Shown here: piece by piece, positions 1-12,001 of the stretch | How positions within the stretch are numbered: the first letter of the stretch is position 1 | Layout of the letters: each line of letters begins with the position of its first letter | Source: an uncultured Thermoanaerobaculia bacterium | Lineage (GTDB): Bacteria; Acidobacteriota; Thermoanaerobaculia; Thermoanaerobaculales; Sulfomarinibacteraceae | DNA length: 64,000 nucleotides | Direction of reading: 5' to 3' | Assembly: GCA_964597585.1 (NCBI GenBank) | Contig: CAZQYU010000001.1 | Span: 632-64,631, forward strand | Position numbers and translations under genes: made by a program | Notes under the pieces: generated by a model | The model's database searches: none | The model's input: the letters and a program-made list of their open reading frames with translations, nothing else | What the model was told of the DNA's origin: nothing

Positions 1-920
1 CGTTGGTAGGTCCGGATCGTGCCGTCCGGAAGGCGCAGCTCGACCCACGCGATCTCCTGGCGCCGCTCGTCCGATGCGAAATAGCGAATCCGGTTGTCCG
101 CTTCGATGTGCCACCAGTGGATCCCGCCGTGCCGGCCGGCGTCGAGGCTGCCCCCGCCGGTCTTGAGCAACATCGCGGAGTAGGACGGTGTGTTGGCCTT
201 GTCCTCGGAGAAGTGGGCGATGTTGACGAGCTTGTCGCCATGGTGCTTGGTCGGCCAGTGGCACTGCTCGCAGGTCTCGCGGGCGGGGCGCAGTGTCCGC
301 AGTGGCGTCATGATCGGCCGGTGGTAGGTGCCGAGGACGGTGTGCCAGACCTGGCGGAGACCGTCGAGCTTCGACTTCACAAACCACGAAGCGCCGGGGC
401 CGATGTGGCAGTCCACACAGGCAACCCGTGAGTGGGGCGACTCCTGGTAGGCCGTGTACTCAGGCTGCATCACGGTGTGGCAGGTCGTGCCACAAAATGA
501 CACTGTCTCCATCTCGTGGACGGCGTAGAACGAGCTCGAACCGAGGATCGTAGCATTGATCACGGTCAGCCCGATGATGATCCACATGACGCGCCGTAGG
601 GCCGGGTCGTTGAAGTCGAGCTTGGGAAAGGTCTCGATCTCCTCCGTCGTTGCACCAGAGGCGATCAGCTTGCGGCGACGTCGCCACATGCCGATCGGAA
701 TCAGCACCAAGCCGAGGACGAAGATCGCGGGCAGCACGAGATACGCGAAGATGCCGACGTAGGGGTTACGCAGTGCGCCGAAAGCCTGCATGGAGATGAA
801 CACGATCAGCATGAGCCCGGACAGCGTGGTCATCACGACCCCGGCAATGGTCAGGGCGTTGTTCGCGAAGTTGACGAGACGCGCGATTGCACCGCGCCGC
901 CAACTAAGGCTCTTCGTCAT
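1..920 (-). CDS. Membrane-anchored multihaem c-type cytochrome, NapC/NirT-like (partial; C-terminal part lies beyond the window start)
   Basis: Absent from the ORF track because no stop lies in the window. Reverse-strand translation starts at ATG 920..918, with GGAGGAGGAG about 5 nt upstream. It reads MTKSLSWRRGAIARLVNFANNALTIAGVVMTTLSGLMLIVFISM..., giving three hydrophobic helices. Haem-c motifs follow: FCGTTCH, ACVDCH and CEQCH. The frame stays open to nt 1. Confidence 0.8.
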   Translation of the reverse strand, partial: MTKSLSWRRGAIARLVNFANNALTIAGVVMTTLSGLMLIVFISMQAFGALRNPYVGIFAYLVLPAIFVLGLVLIPIGMWRRRRKLIASGATTEEIETFPKLDFNDPALRRVMWIIIGLTVINATILGSSSFYAVHEMETVSFCGTTCHTVMQPEYTAYQESPHSRVACVDCHIGPGASWFVKSKLDGLRQVWHTVLGTYHRPIMTPLRTLRPARETCEQCHWPTKHHGDKLVNIAHFSEDKANTPSYSAMLLKTGGGSLDAGRHGGIHWWHIEADNRIRYFASDERRQEIAWVELRLPDGTIRTYQ

Positions 921-962
921 CGGGTCTCCTCCTCCAGTGGACTGGCGAACAAACGGTCCAGG

Positions 963-2105
963 TCAGATCCCGTTGCGCTGGAACATGTCGCGCAGGGACA
1001 GCAGGACCTTGGCGAAGTTGCTTTCTTTCAGGAAGTCCTGGAGCTGGTCTCGAGCGATCCCGCCGTTCATCTTGTCCTCGACCTTGGAGATGATCTCGTA
1101 GAAGTCCGACAACGGCTTCAGTCCCAGCTTCGAGATGTTCTGCTCGTACCATGGGTGGACGCGGACGTGGTTCCAAATCGCCGTCGCGGGAGGGATGTCG
1201 CTCGTCCACAGTCCCTCTGCGACCGTCGTCACCTCTCGGTAGAGGGAGCGCAAGATCGCCTTGGTGTCGTTCTCCTCGAGCTGCGACTTCACAGATCGTT
1301 TGCTCTCCGGCTCGGGAGCCTCAGCCACGGCTGTCGCGGCGCGGCCACCAGGTCTGCTGGGAGCCTTCGGCGGGGCAGGGGAGGGCTTCGACGACTGGGG
1401 TACGAAGGCGGAGCGCGACGGCGGACGCGACTCCCTGCGGTCGGAAGTCTTGTTGCTCTCCGCCTCGGCCTCGGCGGCGTTCGTCTCCTCGCGGTCGCCG
1501 GCCTCGACTTCCGTCTCGGGCTCAGTCGGCTCACCGGACTCCTGCGCGGGCGACGGGCCTTGTGACACGTCGGACTGCGGAGTCGGGGCCTCGTCCCGGG
1601 CGGCTTCTTCTCTCGCCTCGTCGTTACTCGTTGCGCTCACTGCGGCCGCAGCCGCATCGTCCTGGACCTTGACCTGCTCGATGGCCTTGCGAAAGCGGCT
1701 GTGGAATGTCGTCAGGAATCCGAGCTCGGCCTCGCTGATCGGACGTGTCATCGCGAGCTTCTCGCGCATCACTTCGAGCTCGAGGAAGCGCGCATGGAGG
1801 AGCGCAGTGTTGGGGGCGAGGCGTCGAAGTGGGGGGACCAGGTCGGTGTTGTGCTCGAGGATCTCCAGGATGTCCGCAAAGCTGGCGAAGTCGATCAGCT
1901 GCTGGTATTCGCTCTCGTACCAGTCGATCGCCTTCTCCTTCTCCTTGCGCTCGATGAGACGATCCAGCACGCCCTGCGGAAGACCCGTGCGGTACCAGAG
2001 CTTGCCCTGGTTGAGCTCGAGCTCCTGACGAACCGTCGTGCGGAGGTCGTTGAGAATCTCGGTGACTACTCGGTAGGCGTCTAGGTTTTGCTGCAGCCAA
2101 TCCAT
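963..2105 (-). CDS. Hypothetical two-domain protein with a long acidic/Pro-rich disordered linker; N-terminal domain resembles a degenerate Swt1-like HEPN fold
   Basis: I take the ATG at 2105 (MDWLQQNLDAYRV...) rather than the track start at 2348, whose 81-aa extension is Arg/Ser-rich junk. GC3-rich frame. About aa 148-272 are low-complexity (E/A/P/S). The segment LELEVMREKLAMTRPISEAE sits where HEPN proteins carry RNxxAH. Confidence 0.6.
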   Translation of the reverse strand: MDWLQQNLDAYRVVTEILNDLRTTVRQELELNQGKLWYRTGLPQGVLDRLIERKEKEKAIDWYESEYQQLIDFASFADILEILEHNTDLVPPLRRLAPNTALLHARFLELEVMREKLAMTRPISEAELGFLTTFHSRFRKAIEQVKVQDDAAAAAVSATSNDEAREEAARDEAPTPQSDVSQGPSPAQESGEPTEPETEVEAGDREETNAAEAEAESNKTSDRRESRPPSRSAFVPQSSKPSPAPPKAPSRPGGRAATAVAEAPEPESKRSVKSQLEENDTKAILRSLYREVTTVAEGLWTSDIPPATAIWNHVRVHPWYEQNISKLGLKPLSDFYEIISKVEDKMNGGIARDQLQDFLKESNFAKVLLSLRDMFQRNGI

Positions 2106-2244
2106 GAACACTTCCCCTGGCTCGCGACGGCTGGATGTCGATCGGACTGCATGCCGGAACTCGAGGTTACCATGGTGGTGGAGGGAAGTGTAGCGTCGGC
2201 GCAGCGACCTGTTGGGATCGCTGCCACCCTCCACAGGAGGTGGG

Positions 2245-3288
2245 ATGGCGAGTGCCGGGCTGGATGCGACAACCGTGCTCCGTCGTGATCTTGTAGCGGA
2301 GCTTCCCTCGGGCAAGCTCGAGTGCCGCGCCTGCGCCCACCGTTGCAAGCTGGGCGAGGGTCGCCGGGGAGTCTGCCTGGTGCGGTCCCGCGAGGGCGAC
2401 TCCTTGCGAGTTCCGTGGGGCTATGTTGCCGGGCTGGCGGTCGATCCGATCGAGAAGAAGCCGTTCTTCCACGTTGTACCTGGAGGGCGGGCTCTGTCAT
2501 TCGGAATGCTCGGCTGTGATCTCCATTGCAGCTACTGCCAGAACTGGCTGACGTCGCAGAGCCTGCGCGATGAGCGGGCCGTGACCCGGGTGCACCCGGC
2601 GGACCCGAGCGAGCTCGTCGCGGCGGCGCTCGACCGCGGCTGTCGCGTGCTGGTCTCGACCTACAACGAACCGTTGATCACCGCGGAGTGGGCGGTCGAG
2701 ATCTTTCGTCATGCCCGCGCGGCCGGGCTCATCACGGGATTCGTCTCGAACGGGCACGCCACCGCGGAGGTACTGACCTACCTGCAGCCGGTGACCGACC
2801 TCTACAAGGTCGACCTGAAGAGTTTCAGGGAGAGTTCGTACAGGTCGCTGGGAGGCCGCCTCCAAGCGGTGCTCGAGTCGATCGCGGAGCTGCATCGCCT
2901 CGGCTTGTGGCTCGAGGTGGTGACATTGGTCGTCCCGGGCTTCAACGATGAGGACGAGGAGCTCGCGGACATTGCGGGGTTTCTCGCAGCGGTCTCTCCG
3001 GACATTCCGTGGCACGTGACCGCCTTCCACCCTGACTACAGGATGGCCGACCGCGACCGGACCTCTGCTGTGACTCTCGCCCGAGCTCGACGCATCGGTC
3101 ACGACAACGGGCTGCGATACGTCTACGCAGGGAACCTGCCCGGTGAGCTCCACGGAGGCGAGGACACGCACTGTCCGAGCTGCGACGCAACCCTCGTTCG
3201 GCGGCGTGGTTTCTCGGTCCTCGAGGACCGGATCGGGGGCACGGGACAGTGCCCCGAGTGTGGCACCGAGATTGCTGGACGCTGGTGA
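2245..3288 (+). CDS. amrS: AmmeMemoRadiSam-system-type radical SAM enzyme (PflA-like activase fold)
   Basis: ATG 2245 is preceded by AGGAGG (2235-2240). CDLHCSYCQNW is the CxxxCxxC radical SAM motif. An N-terminal Cys cluster is present (CRACAHRCKLGEGRRGVC). DPIEKKPFFH is a family signature. A C-terminal CxxC...CxxC zinc ribbon is present. Confidence 0.85.
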   Translation: MASAGLDATTVLRRDLVAELPSGKLECRACAHRCKLGEGRRGVCLVRSREGDSLRVPWGYVAGLAVDPIEKKPFFHVVPGGRALSFGMLGCDLHCSYCQNWLTSQSLRDERAVTRVHPADPSELVAAALDRGCRVLVSTYNEPLITAEWAVEIFRHARAAGLITGFVSNGHATAEVLTYLQPVTDLYKVDLKSFRESSYRSLGGRLQAVLESIAELHRLGLWLEVVTLVVPGFNDEDEELADIAGFLAAVSPDIPWHVTAFHPDYRMADRDRTSAVTLARARRIGHDNGLRYVYAGNLPGELHGGEDTHCPSCDATLVRRRGFSVLEDRIGGTGQCPECGTEIAGRW

Positions 3289-3731
3289 GAGAGGCCGTGG
3301 GCAGGGCCATTAGCCTGGAACAGATCGGTGAGCTGCTGCTCGGGGCACGAGCCATTGCTGTGGTCGGCTGCTCGCCCCGTCCCGAACGAGATTCGCATCG
3401 CGTTGCGGCCTACCTCAAAGGTCACGGATACCGCATCATTCCCGTCAATCCGGGTCATGATCGGCTCCTCGGTGAGCGCTGCTTTCCCTCCCTCGACTCC
3501 ATTCCGAGGGATGTGAAGATCGACATCGTCGACGTCTTCCGACGTCCGGAGTACGTCTCCGAGATCGTCGATGCTGCTCTCCTCCGGCGGCAGGTGCGGG
3601 CCCTGTGGCTGCAGCTCGGGTGCTCGAACCCCGCAGCTCAGGAGCGCGCGGCGGCGAACGGCATCATGGTCGTGGCGGAGCGCTGCATCATGGTGGACCA
3701 TGCACGACTGGTAGCAAAGCGATGGTACTGA
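3285..3731 (+). CDS. CoA-binding domain protein (YccU/YneT-like)
   Basis: IAVVGCSPRPERDSHRVAAYLKGHGYRIIPVNP is the typical CoA_binding_2 core. The GTG at 3285 overlaps the amrS stop (GTGA). The start is uncertain by about 12 nt. Confidence 0.75.
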   Translation: MREAVGRAISLEQIGELLLGARAIAVVGCSPRPERDSHRVAAYLKGHGYRIIPVNPGHDRLLGERCFPSLDSIPRDVKIDIVDVFRRPEYVSEIVDAALLRRQVRALWLQLGCSNPAAQERAAANGIMVVAERCIMVDHARLVAKRWY

Positions 3732-3784
3732 TTCCAAATGTCTTGGGACGCGTACAGATCTCAGGATGAGACATGTTCTCGAGC

Positions 3785-3813
3785 TTGCGATTTTCTTCAC
3801 ATGCGGATAGAGT
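3785..3813 (+). promoter_or_regulatory. Candidate sigma-70 promoter for the giant cytochrome gene
   Basis: TTGCGA (3785-3790), a 17-nt spacer, then TAGAGT (3808-3813). It lies in a locally AT-richer intergenic stretch. The GAGGAGG RBS and ATG 3838 follow. Confidence 0.35.
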
Positions 3814-3837
3814 TATGCATCGAGGAGGTCGGGGGGG

Positions 3838-6800
3838 ATGACTGGACGACTCACGTCTCAACTCACGGCAACCCGGCGGAGCCGGACCCGTGGGGGCCCG
3901 GTGGCGCTCGGCCTGCTGATTCTCGCGATGGCCGGGGTCGCCTTCGCCCAGGAGAATGCGGACTGTCTGACCTGTCACGACGACCCCGAGGCGACCGGGA
4001 CCAGGGTGGGCAAGGAGATCTCGACCTACGTCGACCCGGCGGCGTTTGCGCGGTCGGTCCACGGCGGCTTCGCGTGCATCGACTGCCACACCGACCTCGA
4101 TGGCGCCGAGCTTCCCCATGCCGAGGATCTTCAACCGGTGGACTGCGCCTCGTGTCACGACGACGTCGCGGCGGAGCAAGCCGAGGGTCCCCACGGCCGC
4201 TGGCCGAAGGTGCCGGGCTCCCCCTCGGCCGCGTGTGAACGCTGCCACGGTGTTCACGACGTCCTGCCACCGAAAGCGCCGGACTCGCCGGTCAACCGCG
4301 TACGAGTCGATTCTCTGTGCGGCACCTGCCACGTTCGCGAGTTGACAGCGGTCAAGACGAGCCCGCACGCTCCCGCCGCCGACGGGGCTCCGACCGCAAG
4401 TTGTGTCGACTGTCATCGTGGCCACTCCGTGACCGCACCGGCGGACCCGATCCGTCAGCTCGACACGTGCGGCCCCTGCCATGCTGAGCAGGCAAAGGGC
4501 CACAAACGCAGCCTTCACGGTCGCGCTGCGGTGAAGGGAGAACCGCTTGCGCCGAGCTGCGTGACCTGTCACGGCAACCACGCGATCCTGAGGCATACCA
4601 ACGAGAAGTCGCCGACCTACGTCACCAACATCCCACTCCTGTGCGGACGCTGCCACCGCGAGGGGACTGCGGTCACCAAGGAGTACAACATCCCACAGGA
4701 CCGCATCCTCGAGAACTTCTCGATGTCGGTCCACGGCCAGGGCCTGTACAAGATGGGCCTGACGGTCACCGCGGTCTGCACGTCGTGCCACACGTCGCAC
4801 GACATCCTCGACCACAACAACCCTGAATCCAGCATCAACCGGGCCAACGTCGCCAAGACCTGCATGAAGTGTCATGCCCGGATCGAACAGGTCCACGTGA
4901 AGGTGATCGAGGGCCGGCTGTGGGAGAAGGAGCCCCACAAGATCCCGTCCTGCGTCGAGTGCCATCAGCCGCACAAGATCCGCCGTCGGACCGTCGACAG
5001 CGTGGGGGGCGCGGCCAACCGGGACTGTATGCGTTGCCACGGCAAGCAGGACCTGACCATGGTCCGCGACGGTGAGACGATCTCTCTGTACGTCGACGCG
5101 GAGGCCTACGACCTCTCGATGCACGCCCGGGTGGCCTGCGCCCAGTGCCACAACGAGGTCACCGTCGGCCACCCGGAACGGGCCTGCATCACCATCAAAC
5201 ACAAGGTGGATTGCAGCATCTGCCACGCCGAGCAGGTGCAGGAGCAGGAGCTTTCCAAGCACGGGCGCCTCGCGGCCGAGGGCGACACGCAGGTTCCAAC
5301 CTGTCTGACATGCCACGACAAGCACGCGACCCAGAGCCACCTCCTGCCGACCGCCCCGACCTTCTCGCGCAACGTGCCGAAGCTGTGTGGACAGTGCCAC
5401 GCGGCGGGAGGCGTCGCCGCCGCGCGGATCACCGCCGACGTGCCCGACATCGTCGAGAGCTACCTCAAGTCGGCCCACGGCAAGGGTCTGATGGAGAGCG
5501 GCTTGGTCGTGTCCGCGAGCTGCATCGACTGCCACACCGCCCACAAGGCACTGCCGCCTGACGACCCCAACTCCTCGGTCAGCCGGGCCAATCTGGCCGA
5601 CACCTGCGGAGCCTGCCACAGGGGCATCGAGGAGCAGTTCAAGACCAGCATCCATTGGCCCGGGAACGTGGTCACCACGAAGAAGCTGCCGGTGTGCGAG
5701 GACTGCCATACCTCGCACTCGATTGGCCGGGTGGACACCTCGGACTTCCGCTTCGCCATGATGAACCAGTGCGGCAGGTGCCACGAGGACTATGCGAAGA
5801 CCTTCTTCGAGACTTACCACGGAAAGGTCACTCAGCTCGGCTCCCCCGGCGCCGCCAAGTGCTACGACTGCCACGGAACCCACAACATCCTGCCGGTCGA
5901 GGATCCCAACTCGACGCTGAGCCACCGCAACGTGGTCGACACCTGCGCCAAGTGCCACCCAGGCGCCCACCGGCAGTTCGCCGGCTACCTGACCCACGCC
6001 ACCCATCACGAGCCGGAGAAGTACCCCTTCCTGTTCTACTCGTTCTGGTTCATGACGCTGCTCCTGGTGGGAACGCTGACCTTCTTCCTGTTCCACACCT
6101 TCCTGTGGCTGTTCCGCCTGTGGCGGACCCGTGAGCAGTGGCGGGTCCACAAGAACGGCAAGGCGGAGCGGTACTACCTGAGGTTCACCAGCAAGCAGCG
6201 TGTGATGCACCTGGTGATGCTGCTCAGTTTCTTCACCCTCGCGCTGACCGGGATGACCCTCAAGTTCTCGTACATGCCGTGGGCGCACGGTCTGTCGAAG
6301 GTCCTCGGCGGCTTCGACACCATGGGGACCCTGCACCGGATCGGTGCGGTGACCCTGATCGCGCTCTTCCTTTTCCACATCCGCGACGTCTTCAAAGCCA
6401 AGGGGCGCTCCGGCAAGAGCTGGTTCAAGTTCATCTTCGGAACCAGCTCGCTGATGTTCAATCTCGACGACGTCAAGCAGTTCTGGAAGAGCACGAAGTG
6501 GTTCATCGGACGCGGTCCGCGTCCCGAGTACGGGCGCTTCACCTACTGGGAGAAGTTCGACTACTTTGCGGTGTTCTGGGGTGTGTTCGTGATCGGCTCG
6601 ACCGGGTTGCTGCTCTGGTTCCCGGAGTTCTTCACCCGCTTCCTACCGGGCTGGGCGATCAACGTCGCCACCATCATCCACAGCGACGAGGCGCTGCTCG
6701 CGGTCGGGTTCATCTTCACGATCCACTTCTTCAACACGCACTTCCGTCCCGACAAGTTCCCGATGGACCCGGTGATCTTCACCGGTCGCGTCTCGCTCGA

Positions 6801-6999
6801 AGAGCTCCGACACGACAAGCCCGCAGAGTACGAGGAGTTCGTCGAGCAGGCCTCCGAGGAGGAGCGGGCAAAGCGGGTCGTTGGTCCGGCTGCCCCCAAG
6901 ACCGAAAGGCTTTTCCGGATCTTCGGTTTCACGGCCCTTGGTATCGGGTTGACGCTGATCTTCCTGATCCTGTATGCGATGCTCTTTGGATACCGGTGA
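3838..6999 (+). CDS. Fusion protein: periplasmic 23-haem c-type cytochrome domain plus C-terminal FdnI/HydC/PhsC-like cytochrome b membrane domain
   Basis: Signal peptide ...LLILAMAGVAFA/QE. I counted 23 CxxCH motifs, from CLTCH at aa 43 to CAKCH at aa 703. About 6 hydrophobic helices follow, with conserved His residues (RVMHLVMLL, LHRIGAVTLIALFLFH, IIHSDEALLAVGFIFTIHFFNTH). It is a single uninterrupted 1053-aa ORF. Confidence 0.9.
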   Translation: MTGRLTSQLTATRRSRTRGGPVALGLLILAMAGVAFAQENADCLTCHDDPEATGTRVGKEISTYVDPAAFARSVHGGFACIDCHTDLDGAELPHAEDLQPVDCASCHDDVAAEQAEGPHGRWPKVPGSPSAACERCHGVHDVLPPKAPDSPVNRVRVDSLCGTCHVRELTAVKTSPHAPAADGAPTASCVDCHRGHSVTAPADPIRQLDTCGPCHAEQAKGHKRSLHGRAAVKGEPLAPSCVTCHGNHAILRHTNEKSPTYVTNIPLLCGRCHREGTAVTKEYNIPQDRILENFSMSVHGQGLYKMGLTVTAVCTSCHTSHDILDHNNPESSINRANVAKTCMKCHARIEQVHVKVIEGRLWEKEPHKIPSCVECHQPHKIRRRTVDSVGGAANRDCMRCHGKQDLTMVRDGETISLYVDAEAYDLSMHARVACAQCHNEVTVGHPERACITIKHKVDCSICHAEQVQEQELSKHGRLAAEGDTQVPTCLTCHDKHATQSHLLPTAPTFSRNVPKLCGQCHAAGGVAAARITADVPDIVESYLKSAHGKGLMESGLVVSASCIDCHTAHKALPPDDPNSSVSRANLADTCGACHRGIEEQFKTSIHWPGNVVTTKKLPVCEDCHTSHSIGRVDTSDFRFAMMNQCGRCHEDYAKTFFETYHGKVTQLGSPGAAKCYDCHGTHNILPVEDPNSTLSHRNVVDTCAKCHPGAHRQFAGYLTHATHHEPEKYPFLFYSFWFMTLLLVGTLTFFLFHTFLWLFRLWRTREQWRVHKNGKAERYYLRFTSKQRVMHLVMLLSFFTLALTGMTLKFSYMPWAHGLSKVLGGFDTMGTLHRIGAVTLIALFLFHIRDVFKAKGRSGKSWFKFIFGTSSLMFNLDDVKQFWKSTKWFIGRGPRPEYGRFTYWEKFDYFAVFWGVFVIGSTGLLLWFPEFFTRFLPGWAINVATIIHSDEALLAVGFIFTIHFFNTHFRPDKFPMDPVIFTGRVSLEELRHDKPAEYEEFVEQASEEERAKRVVGPAAPKTERLFRIFGFTALGIGLTLIFLILYAMLFGYR

Positions 7000-7028
7000 T
7001 CAGAGCACCGCAGCTCCCCGATCGCGGC

Positions 7029-7090
7029 GTGGCGGTCACGCGGCCCCGTGCCACGCGATCGCCCGACGGCCGAAGGTCGGAGAGTCGGCG
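7029..7090 (+). terminator. GC-rich imperfect hairpins downstream of the cytochrome gene (possible terminator, no U-tract)
   Basis: CGATCGCG(GC)GTGGC ... GCCACGCGATCG at 7029-7071, followed by CCGAC-N8-GTCGG at 7073-7090. Confidence 0.2.
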
Positions 7091-7192
7091 TCGCTCCGCT
7101 TAGATTGAGGATTCTCCGCGGTGGGGGTACCCTGACCGAAGCGCCCGCAGTCTCATGAGGCAATCGTTCACCGGGAGGGTTGGAAGGCGACC

Positions 7193-7852
7193 ATGACCAG
7201 GATTCTCGGTTTCTACGAGTCGACGCTGGGCAAGAAGTGGGTGATGGCCGCGACCGGCATCATCCTCTTCCTTTTCGTGGTGGTGCACATGCTCGGCAAC
7301 CTGCAGCTCTACCTCGGAGCGGAGCAGCTGAACCACTACGCCGAGCTCCTGCGCAAGAACATGGCGCTGCTGTGGACGGCGCGTTGCGTGCTGCTGTTCT
7401 GCGTCGCCGTGCACATCGTCGCGGCGGCCCAGGTGTGGCTCCGCAGCCGCGCAAGCCGACCGGTGAAGTACAGGGTCTTCCGTCCGCCTGCGGTGGACTA
7501 CGCGGCGCGGACCATGGCGTGGAGCGGACCGATCATCGCCGCGTTCGTGCTCTTCCACATCCTCGACCTGACGGTGGGTACCGTGCATCCCGGTTTCGTC
7601 CGTGGCGACGTCTACCACAACGTCGTCACGGGGTTCCAGAACCCCTGGGTGGCGGGCCTCTACATTCTCGCCAATGCGCTGCTCGCGATGCACCTCTACC
7701 ACGGCCTCTGGAGCCTCTTCCAGACCTTCGGCTGGGACCACCCGAAGCTCAACCCGTGGCGGCGTCGCGCCGCGGTCCTGTTCGCCGTGGCCATCGGGGC
7801 CGGCAACATCTCCATGCCGCTCGCCGTGCTCACCGGCGTCGTGCACCTGTGA
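7193..7852 (+). CDS. sdhC: Succinate dehydrogenase/fumarate reductase cytochrome b subunit (single b558-type anchor)
   Basis: 219 aa with five hydrophobic helices bearing His ([33 protein letters not shown]). It sits directly upstream of sdhA and sdhB. Confidence 0.85.
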
Positions 7853-7865
7853 GGAGGAACGGCCA

Positions 7866-9775
<1,910 letters not shown>

Positions 9776-9779
<4 letters not shown>

Positions 9780-10543
9780 AGCTGACGCTGCACATCTGGC
9801 GCCAGAGGGACCAAAACGACGCGGGCGGTTTCGCGACCTATCGGCTCGCCGACGTCAGCACCCACATGTCGTTCCTCGAGATGCTCGACGTCCTCAACCA
9901 GGAGCTGATCGAGAAGGGCGAGGAACCGGTCGCGTTCGAGCACGATTGCCGCGAGGGCATCTGCGGCTCGTGCGGTTTCGTCATCAACGGTCTCGCCCAC
10001 GGCGGTCAGCGCGGCAGCACGGTCTGTCAGCTGCACATGCGGCACTTCTCGGACGGTGACGAGCTGGTGCTCGAACCGTGGCGAGCCAAGGCGTTCCCGG
10101 TGCTCAAGGACCTGATCGTCGATCGTTCCGCATTCGACCGAATCATCCAGGCCGGGGGGTACGTGTCGGTTCAGACCGGTGCGCCGCCCGACGCCAACGC
10201 ACAGCCCATCGCCAAGGACACCGCCGATCTGGCCATGGACTTCGCGGAGTGCATCGGCTGCGGCGCCTGCGTGGCGTCGTGCCCGAACAGCGCGTCGATG
10301 CTGTTCGTGGGCGCCAAGATCGCGCACCTCGGGCTGCTCCCGCAGGGTCAGCCCGAGCGTGATGCGCGGGCGCGTGCGATGGTGACGGCGATGGAGGACG
10401 AGGCCTTCGGCGCCTGCTCCAACTACCGTTCCTGCGAGGCGGTCTGCCCGAAGGAGATCTCGATCTCCGCGATCGCGAGGATGAACAAAGACTTCCGGAA
10501 GGCGCAGCTTCGCCTCGCCGGCGCAAGCGGAAAGCGGAAGTAG
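9776..10543 (+). CDS. sdhB: Succinate dehydrogenase/fumarate reductase iron-sulfur subunit
   Basis: The ATG at 9776 overlaps the sdhA stop (ATGA). Cys clusters are [22 protein letters not shown] and CEAVCP. Confidence 0.95.
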
Positions 10544-10726
10544 CGAGCCCCCACTTTTCACCGGGTCGAGCTGCGAGCCTGCCGAGATGCGGCCGGCGTA
10601 GAGCCGTCGAGTGGCGAGCCGCCGAGGCGTCTGGAGACGCGCTGCAGGTGGTGGGTTGCGAGAGGGTCGGCGATCGCCGGCAGATCGGCGCTCGCAGCAG
10701 GGGACCGGTGAGATCTGCAGGCGAGA

Positions 10727-12001
10727 TCAGATCACGGTGTCGTCCGGGACGACGGCGTTCTTCGGAACCACGACGATCCCGTCGCGGATGGCCCACCCAT
10801 CGCCTTCCGCCTCGTCGAGGCCCCGCTCGTTGACGATCTTCACGCCGCGCCCGATCCGGGCGTTCTTGTCGATGATCGCGTTCACGATTTCGGTCTCTTC
10901 GCCGATACCGACCGGCGGCGCGTCGGCCGGGGCGTCAGGAACGTGGGAGTCAACTCCCATGATCAGGCAGCGATCGATTCTGCACCCGGTGGCGATGGCG
11001 CGCAGGCCGACCACGGAGTGCGTGACGACCGAGTCCTCGATCCGGGTTCCGTCCGCGAGCAGTACCCGGTCGAAGCTGCAGTGACGGAGCTCGGCGCCCG
11101 GGAGATACCGGGGCCGGGTGTAGAACGGCCATTCGTTGTCGTGGAAGGAGAATGGCGGATGGTCGGAGACGAGGTCCATGTGGGCTTCGAAGAAGGCCCG
11201 GATCGTCCCGATGTCGCGCCAGTAGCCGTTGAAGAAGTGAGTTTGCACGCGGAAGGGGCCCACCGCCGCCGGGATGATGTCGCGCCCGAAGTCGATTGCA
11301 TCGCTCGCCAGACACTCGAGCAGGACGCGCTTGCGAAACATGTAGATCCCCATCGAGCCGAGGTACGGCTCGGCGGCGCCGAGCCCTTCCCGGCGCATGA
11401 CCTCCTCGGGCAGCTCCATGCCCGTGCGTGCCTGAGGGGTGGCGGGCTTTTCGCGAAACTCGCGGATCCGGTTGTCATCATCGACGCGGACCGCGCCGAA
11501 ACCGGCGATCTCCTCCTCGGAGCACGGCATCACACCGACCGTGATGTCCGCACCGTGCTTGACGTGGTCGTCGAGCAGGGCGCGGTAGTCCATCCGGTAC
11601 ATGTGGTCGCCAGCCAGGATCAGGACGTGGTCCCCTGGTAGCTCGACGAACGAGCCGAGATTCTGTCGCACCGCGTCTGCGGTGCCCTGGAACCAGGCCT
11701 GCGCCCTCGGCGTCTGCTGGGCGGCCAGAATCTGGACGTAGCCGCGGGAGAAGGCGTCGAAACGGTAGGTGCGGCCGATATGGCGGTGGAGCGAAACCGA
11801 GTTGAACTGGGTGAGTACGTACATCCGTTCCATCGACGAGTTGATGGCGTTCGAGATCGGGATGTCGATCAGGCGGTACTTGCCCGCGATCGGTACAGCC
11901 GGCTTGGAGCGCAGGCGGGTGAGAGGCTCGAGGCGGGTTCCACGGCCGCCCCCGAGGATGAGGACGGTGACGTTGGCGGTGAGATCGTTGAGACGGGTCA
12001 T
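10727..12001 (-). CDS. glgC: Glucose-1-phosphate adenylyltransferase
   Basis: LILGGGRGTRLEPLTRLRSKPAVPIAGKYRLIDIPISNAINS is the family signature. ATG 12001 has GGAGGAGG about 10 nt upstream. Confidence 0.9.
   Translation of the reverse strand: MTRLNDLTANVTVLILGGGRGTRLEPLTRLRSKPAVPIAGKYRLIDIPISNAINSSMERMYVLTQFNSVSLHRHIGRTYRFDAFSRGYVQILAAQQTPRAQAWFQGTADAVRQNLGSFVELPGDHVLILAGDHMYRMDYRALLDDHVKHGADITVGVMPCSEEEIAGFGAVRVDDDNRIREFREKPATPQARTGMELPEEVMRREGLGAAEPYLGSMGIYMFRKRVLLECLASDAIDFGRDIIPAAVGPFRVQTHFFNGYWRDIGTIRAFFEAHMDLVSDHPPFSFHDNEWPFYTRPRYLPGAELRHCSFDRVLLADGTRIEDSVVTHSVVGLRAIATGCRIDRCLIMGVDSHVPDAPADAPPVGIGEETEIVNAIIDKNARIGRGVKIVNERGLDEAEGDGWAIRDGIVVVPKNAVVPDDTVI

Follow-up and report, generated by a model that had tools for sequence, protein, structure and literature searches.

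The stretch of DNA analysed here, called the window, comprises 64,000 nucleotides of an uncultured Thermoanaerobaculia bacterium (GenBank assembly GCA_964597585.1, contig CAZQYU010000001.1, positions 632 to 64,631), and its first 920 nucleotides carry, on the minus strand, a gene cut by the window edge. This gene very probably encodes the N-terminal 63% of an inner-membrane multihaem c-type cytochrome of the ImcH family, presumably oxidizing menaquinol, with a CbcL-type cytochrome encoded nearby as a second oxidoreductase or as its partner. Judged from its sequence, the protein is an ordinary member of the ImcH family in an Acidobacteriota-like genome. In Geobacter, ImcH is the menaquinol oxidase needed for reduction of high-potential extracellular acceptors (PMC4251993).

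Direct translation gives a minus-strand frame open from an ATG (920-918) to nucleotide 1. As there is no stop in its 306 codons, the gene continues past the window edge, and the piece at hand (1..920), the first 306 of about 488 codons, encodes three transmembrane (TM) helices and haem sites 1-3 of six, all of c type. The Shine-Dalgarno-like sequence GGAGGAGGAG (926..935, minus strand) can be read directly 5 nucleotides upstream of the ATG. Hydrophobic helices were found at about residues 21-51, 52-80 and 108-129 by a Kyte-Doolittle scan, and the AlphaFold2 model of P0001, a full-length database relative 90% identical to the fragment, has helices at 22-46, 53-87 and 106-137 with predicted local distance difference test (pLDDT) values of 75-94. 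TM helix 1 is accordingly placed at about residues 22-46 (783..857, minus strand; 27-46 in a 489-residue acidobacterial homologue in Table S3 of PMC6295460), TM helix 2 at about 53-80 (681..764, minus strand), followed by the cytoplasmic loop WRRRRK, and TM helix 3 at about 108-131 (528..599, minus strand), within the NapC/NirT homology region and covered by the PF03264 and NrfH matches as well. The WRRRRK loop after TM helix 2 and the Arg-rich N-terminus argue for a periplasmic haem domain. The first haem motif, CGTTCH (residues 143-148, nucleotides 477-494, directly preceded by F142), lies about 12 residues past TM helix 3. The haem-2 motif CVDCH (residues 168-172; 405..419, minus strand) and the haem-3 motif CEQCH (residues 217-221; 258..272, minus strand) are seen in the translation, in relatives and in the BLASTP alignment to a Geobacter ImcH orthologue, and the fragment has only six cysteines, all within these three motifs.

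The Pfam model of the NapC/NirT N-terminal region, PF03264, matches residues 113-200 with 45.8 bits (gathering cut-off 24.1), and more than 7,500 homologues came up in a protein search, P0001 ranking first (E = 8e-192) with 90% identity over all 306 residues. Because of this match and these homologues, we regard the frame as a real gene and not as a chance open reading frame (ORF) in DNA of 66% GC. An earlier note, made from the letters of the DNA alone, had described the frame with a strong ribosome-binding site and three TM helices followed by FCGTTCH, CVDCH and CEQCH. Direct reading, translation and hydropathy uphold all of this, and the NapC/NirT similarity, on which that note had staked its proposal, is present.

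For comparison with ImcH itself, a Geobacter reference was found by a DNA-pattern scan of a genome collection, using the MTLRKT N-terminus and a haem-1 histidine at residue 137. The reference, L005, is an orthologue from a metagenome-assembled genome of Geobacter sp. and not GSU3259 itself; its layout is that published for GSU3259 and G. pickeringii. It has 504 residues, starts with MTLRKT and carries haem motifs at 132/157/206/312/429/449/487, matching the Geobacter ImcH proteins in Table S3 of PMC6295460. By BLASTP the window fragment is 39% identical to L005 over 285 residues (E = 1e-82), and P0001 is 37% identical over 460 residues (E = 2e-122), collinear and with haems 1-6 aligned. Identities between Geobacter and non-Geobacter ImcH homologues are 31.5-49% in the published survey (PMC6295460), so the similarity falls in the published range. 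The window protein and Geobacter ImcH thus share three N-terminal TM helices, a CX3CH motif after TM helix 3, a core homologous to NapC/NirT/NrfH over TM helix 3 and the first haems, and the spacing of the E/K/Q/Y pocket residues discussed below. What sets the Geobacter protein apart is a C-terminal seventh haem (CSDCH-487) with a tail, to which the six-haem relatives have no counterpart, and a monocistronic, unlinked imcH, whereas genes of the window type have two linked genes, one of CbcL type and one for a 380-residue protein with no assigned family.

The family is well described. Levar et al. 2014 (PMC4251993, Fig. 1 legend) gave the first haem motif of Geobacter sulfurreducens ImcH (GSU3259) as CXXXCH. 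In the survey of Zhong and Shi 2018 (PMC6295460), 19 of 71 ImcH homologues come from Acidobacteria; the atypical CX3CH by the TM domain is present in all 71, together with 5-9 CX2CH motifs, and all except two have three TM motifs. Table S3 of that survey lists three proteins of 'Acidobacteria bacterium RIFCSPHIGHO2 ... 67', each of 489 residues, with haem motifs at 144/168/217/327/444/465 and TM segments at 27-46, 61-83 and 113-135. This motif layout is nearly that of P0001 (144 against 143 for the first motif, the others being equal). Both the six-haem acidobacterial subtype of ImcH and its CX3CH feature are therefore already catalogued. The earlier proposal of an ImcH-like, NapC/NirT-related cytochrome with three TM helices is borne out by the alignment to L005 together with these two papers.

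The three residues between the cysteines of the first motif had been taken as an anomaly. They are instead the documented ImcH signature (PMC4251993, PMC6295460), and because they are, CX3CH supports the assignment to this family. Conservation of the motif was followed in two sets, the best 120 of the more than 7,500 relatives from the database and 78 relatives from metagenome contigs. The extra residue is kept in every member of both, 120 of 120 (consensus CG[ET]TCH) and 78 of 78 (with identities down to 41%), and the Geobacter orthologue has it too (CGELCH, 132-137). The whole haem-1 signature FCGTTCHTVMQPE (residues 142-154; 459..497, minus strand) consists of CX3CH and the near-invariant Met151, Pro153 and Glu154, as judged from relatives, and the pattern FCGxxCHxxMxPE is kept in 194 of 195 family sequences, Geobacter included. 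An artefact, whether a normal CXXCH altered by an indel in sequencing or assembly or an ORF that is a pseudogene fragment, would account for a motif that is unusual for NapC/NirT proteins, and nothing further speaks in its favour. With CX3CH present in all 198 independent relatives and in Geobacter, with a one-codon insertion that keeps the reading frame, and with 90% identity to P0001 along all 306 residues, such an explanation retains practically no probability, and the universal conservation of the motif rules out an indel in CGTTCH.

About 182 C-terminal residues with haems 4-6 are predicted to lie beyond the window edge. The full protein would have six haem motifs, a count resting on two relatives 86-90% identical to the fragment. 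P0001 has 488 residues and motifs at 143/168/217/327/444/465. The second relative, of 487 residues and 86% identity, with five CXXCH besides CX3CH, is encoded on a metagenomic contig syntenic with the window (L001). Gene order there is Sdh_cyt, a 1029-residue multihaem/b-type fusion, a CoA-binding gene, a radical-SAM gene, a 382-residue gene of no assigned function, the 487-residue cytochrome and a convergent SLT-domain gene. Of the 5-9 CX2CH motifs that follow CX3CH in the published survey, two fall inside the window and five are present in both P0001 and L001. Nearly all of the 120 best database relatives have 486-490 residues, 115 of them show CX3CH plus five CXXCH, and in the full-length relatives inspected each of the 12 cysteines belongs to a haem motif. 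The comparison with ImcH made in the earlier note had suggested about seven haems; the comparison stands and the count does not, the full-length relatives having six, a variant tabulated already in 2018. A seventh CXXCH, as in Geobacter, occurs in 6 of the 78 metagenomic relatives. Two proteins in the cluster of P0011 (P0132 and P0135) have 548 residues rather than about 489.

The similarity to NapC/NirT proteins raises the alternative that the window protein is a conventional anchor of this type, dedicated to a periplasmic reductase of nitrite, nitrate or trimethylamine N-oxide/dimethyl sulphoxide (TMAO/DMSO), and not a general quinol oxidase like ImcH. Besides PF03264, its top NCBIfam matches are NrfH and TorC, and the Joint Genome Institute (JGI) labels relatives 'nitrate/TMAO reductase-like tetraheme cytochrome c subunit'. 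The only meaningful match to a solved structure is likewise NrfH (2j7a_C, HMMER, E = 1.7e-5, residues 114-224). All the scores are far below the curated cut-offs, however: 47.9 against 134.2 bits for NrfH (TIGR03153), 21.6 against 310.6 for NapC/NirT (TIGR02161) and 28.1 against 478.2 for TorC. The match to the Geobacter ImcH orthologue, E = 1e-82, stands against 1.7e-5 for NrfH. Three TM helices, six haems and 488 residues stand against one helix, 4-5 haems and about 150-390 residues, and a gene of NrfA, NapA or TorA type adjoins the cytochrome gene neither in the window nor in L001-L003. We therefore consider an anchor of this kind highly improbable. None of the canonical NapC/NirT/NrfH features, namely a single TM helix, a tetra- or pentahaem count, CXXCH at haem 1 and a score above the curated models, was found. 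With equivalog scores so low and no reductase gene nearby, a dedicated NrfH/NapC/TorC anchor was rejected. The Geobacter orthologue itself scores below the cut-off of the NrfH model (52.6 bits). NCBIfam holds no ImcH model, and the generic 'NapC/NirT family' annotations of ImcH proteins can be explained by this absence together with the roughly 50 bits that they reach on the NrfH model.

What the ImcH-family protein shares with NrfH of Desulfovibrio vulgaris (2j7a/2vr0) and with NapC, NirT, CymA and TorC is a homologous TM helix and haems 1-3 (PF03264). NrfH has about 160 residues, four haems, a first motif CXXCHXM and one TM helix, which corresponds to TM helix 3 of the window protein. The latter differs by two extra TM helices and by two single-residue insertions (CX3CH and CH-xx-M), visible in the HMMER alignment (fcgttchtvm against fc-tsch-im) as two places where NrfH lacks one residue, in the loop between the two cysteines and between histidine and methionine. 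Its family also differs from NrfH by a C-terminal extension of about 270 residues with haems 4-6 and by the lack of a dedicated reductase partner gene. In the same alignment M151 falls on Met49, Q190 on Asp89 and S183/K184 on Lys82, which in NrfH are the proximal haem-1 ligand, the distal residue and a quinol-site residue, respectively (bioRxiv 10.1101/2023.05.03.539133). The alignment predicts the same quinol site as in NrfH, at the periplasmic surface of the membrane.

The haem-1 pocket points in the same direction. For Geobacter ImcH, a preprint (bioRxiv 10.1101/2023.05.03.539133) predicts that H137 and Q179 ligate haem 1 and names E127, K173 and Y188 as conserved in the pocket. E127/K173/Q179/Y188 correspond to E138/K184/Q190/Y199 of the window protein at identical offsets from the haem-1 histidine, and K184, Q190 and Y199 (ImcH K173, Q179 and Y188), placed by these offsets, delimit the predicted quinol-site and haem-1 distal region (324..371, minus strand). 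The lysine and the glutamine are invariant in 120 of 120 database relatives and in 77 of 78 metagenomic ones. M151 (468-470), three residues past the haem-1 histidine, is shared by 194 of 195 sequences of the family. The ImcH preprint (bioRxiv 10.1101/2023.05.03.539133) models haem 1 with His/Gln ligation and does not mention the conserved methionine. Haem 1 might in fact have this near-invariant residue at His+3 as its proximal ligand, as NrfH has Met49, in place of the modelled His/Gln pair.

Homology to NrfH and to ImcH of Geobacter suggests that menaquinol is bound and oxidized beside haem 1, at the periplasmic surface of the membrane, with release of its protons into the periplasm. The six haems would then carry its electrons to a multihaem acceptor that is either periplasmic or anchored in the membrane. 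Quinol oxidation of this kind would be electroneutral and would recycle the quinone pool. Geobacter ImcH is reduced by menadiol, is electroneutral, has PpcA as its partner and covers haem potentials of -150 to -358 mV (bioRxiv 10.1101/2023.05.03.539133). A mainly reverse function, in which the window protein would act as a quinone reductase and bring electrons from outside (oxidation of Fe(II) or of an electrode) into the menaquinone pool, is conceivable, since CymA and relatives of CbcL/MtoC occur in both reducers and oxidizers and multihaem chains are in principle reversible (PMC6295460). We hold it to be very unlikely, as those potentials and the measured oxidation of menadiol point to quinol oxidation and as ImcH homologues were known only from Fe(III)-reducing organisms at the time of the 2018 survey (PMC6295460).

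It had also been suspected that the CX3CH site needs, or indicates, a relaxed specificity of haem lyase. This idea is unsupported and, without being disproved, unnecessary: Geobacter ImcH made in Shewanella oneidensis contained 6.6 Fe per protein for seven sites (bioRxiv 10.1101/2023.05.03.539133), which implies that a general maturation system loads the CX3CH site. A WWD-type haem-handling motif was found in no ORF of the window, which holds two cytochrome c genes, and a search of the literature for maturation of CXXXCH by Ccm gave nothing usable. The Ccm system of E. coli tolerates CX3CH and CX4CH, a point on which our argument does not rely.

The second of these cytochrome genes (3838..6999, plus strand) is divergent from the imcH-like gene and encodes a fusion protein of 1053 residues, which combines 23 CXXCH motifs with a dihaem b-type membrane domain, similar to FdnI and HydC, at the C-terminus. 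The earlier note had placed a CbcL-like fusion 2.9 kb from the edge gene; the distance from 920 to 3838 is 2,918 nucleotides and the architecture is indeed CbcL-like. Several Pfam multihaem domains match the protein, and its membrane domain scores 26.8 bits on PF01292, just under the cut-off of 30.1, and E = 5.7e-9 on TIGR01583 (formate dehydrogenase gamma). FdnI (1kqf_C, E = 1e-4) is its sole match among solved structures. The four histidine positions that we take to be the haem ligands of FdnI align to histidines in the 1053-residue protein. In the neighbour, as in CbcL (GSU0274), MtrH and MtoC, a periplasmic multihaem c domain at the N-terminus is joined to a HydC/FdnI-like domain with two b haems at the C-terminus, and it is by this architecture that the neighbour is assigned to the CbcL type. 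The published architecture of CbcL is a nine-haem c domain with a HydC/FdnI-like b domain, the family ranging from 3 to 23 motifs; CbcL has 9 CXXCH, whereas the window neighbour, with 23, is at the top of the range. A chain of 23 haems might in principle be long enough to cross the periplasm unaided. Orthologues of 1027-1050 residues are present in L001, L003, L040 and L051.

The neighbourhood of the two genes recurs. In 83 related loci, a homologue of the FdnI-like b domain of the neighbour was sought within 4 kb of the imcH-like gene, and it was present in 43. Flanks of 4 kb or more are available to either side in 26 of these loci; 15 of the 26 have the partner, 10 of the 15 on the same strand. 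Several arrangements look like operons. A nine-haem and b fusion (8252-9958) is followed by imcH from 9968 in L091 (locus 8252-11440); imcH ends at 8745 and the partner starts at 8766 in L068 (locus 7339-10484); and the gap between the two in L087 (locus 1933-6762) extends from 5283 to 5320. Stop and start codons overlap in L108 and also in L064 (locus 5084-8578), where c (5084-6388) and b (6381-7235) are separate genes and imcH starts at 7232. The imcH-like gene adjoins a CbcL-type gene in L066 (4199-7464) as well. The partners are either fused (568-1116 residues, 9-19 haems) or split into c and b. At the Geobacter locus L005 no FdnI-like partner was found within 8 kb of imcH, which fits the published monocistronic imcH. 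Zhong and Shi (PMC6295460) noted that imcH is often associated with genes for c-type cytochromes, nothing more specific, and none of the genomes with the 489-residue ImcH homologues appears in their CbcL table. No earlier report of imcH-cbcL linkage was found in the literature searched, the coverage of which was incomplete. The recurrent imcH/CbcL-type operon is the one modestly new observation here, and this genomic pattern suggests co-function.

That the two proteins provide two alternative exits for electrons from the inner membrane, as the earlier note had proposed, is plausible by analogy with Geobacter. The pairing could reflect either two parallel routes that are expressed together or one functional pair, and the frequent operonic coupling fits co-function at least as well as alternative exits. 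Were the ImcH-like and CbcL-type proteins instead one co-expressed unit, a complex or an obligate electron-transfer pair of the inner membrane, the frequency of the pairing, the operon-like gaps and overlapping codons, and the persistence of the pairing, fused as well as split, over identities of 41% to 86% would follow naturally. The linkage is not universal, though, since no partner occurs in L047 and L048, whose flanks extend 10 kb to either side; the Geobacter genes are unlinked, genetically separable and act at different potentials (PMC4251993; PMC6295460); in the window they point away from each other across 2.9 kb and are separated by two unrelated genes; and co-transcription equally fits two parallel constitutive routes. 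We consider a single unit rather unlikely, though by no means negligible. As a more far-reaching and rather doubtful extension, the ImcH and CbcL-type proteins of Acidobacteriota and neighbouring phyla may form an ancestrally coupled, co-transcribed module, the independent, potential-specific exits of Geobacter being the derived state. Such a module could be a complex in which the P-side quinol site of ImcH is joined to the transmembrane dihaem b domain and the long multihaem wire of the CbcL-type partner.

Several points weigh against assigning the edge gene to an ImcH-type menaquinol oxidase. Experimental work on the family concerns Geobacter only and none of it acidobacterial homologues, and the C-terminal 182 residues lie outside the window, the six-haem count being taken from P0001 and the syntenic L001. 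The AlphaFold2 model of P0001 (40-sequence alignment, mean pLDDT 68, predicted template modelling score 0.48) is confident for the TM helices and some C-terminal elements only, the haem core at residues 132-227 staying below 50, and a Foldseek search of the model against the PDB gave no informative match (best E = 0.78). Beyond the CbcL-type neighbour, the window contains no outer-membrane conduit and no further cytochromes. A role of the window gene specifically in extracellular electron transfer is therefore a candidate only.

For the window itself, the value of an ImcH-type assignment would lie in a correct annotation, a menaquinol oxidase of ImcH type adjoining one of CbcL type, where public records label such proteins "NapC/NirT family cytochrome c", "nitrate/TMAO reductase-like tetraheme subunit" or "hypothetical". 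This makes the host organism a candidate for multihaem-based respiration, whether extracellular or periplasmic. With more than 7,500 matches, mostly from Acidobacteriota of soil and sediment, the family is large. The recurrent operonic pairing offers a testable hint of a functional tie between the two quinol oxidases in most lineages, which, if true, would refine the model of separate high- and low-potential exits derived from Geobacter.

The cytochrome gene appears to be the last of a two-gene unit. The co-oriented upstream gene (963..2105, minus strand) ends 42 nucleotides before the imcH-like start, and the two are probably co-transcribed; a scan of positions 1-4000 of the window for promoters and terminators gave nothing above shuffled expectation. 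The 380-residue product of the upstream gene has no Pfam, NCBIfam or meaningful PDB match. It is built of a conserved N-terminal domain (about 160 residues) and a conserved C-terminal one (about 110 residues), connected by an acidic, Pro/Ala-rich low-complexity linker, and lacks TM helices. Its homologues (L001 6301-7449, L002 9765-10916, L003 9596-10756, L039 ~2006-3154, L040 ~6928-8058) always flank the imcH-like gene and occur in the closest clade only, upstream of it in the window and L001 and downstream in L002, L003, L039 and L040.

Between this unit and the CbcL-type gene lies a gene for a radical-SAM enzyme (PF04055; 2212-3288, plus strand) with C-terminal Cys-rich, zinc-ribbon-like motifs; in L001 it is kept at the same position, together with a small CoA_binding_2 gene. 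Directly after the CbcL-type gene follows a set resembling succinate dehydrogenase/fumarate reductase (7193-10543, plus strand), composed of an Sdh_cyt b subunit (7193-7852), a flavoprotein-like ORF extending to 9779 and an Fe-S-like ORF extending to 10543. The Sdh_cyt gene has the same position in L001 as in the window.

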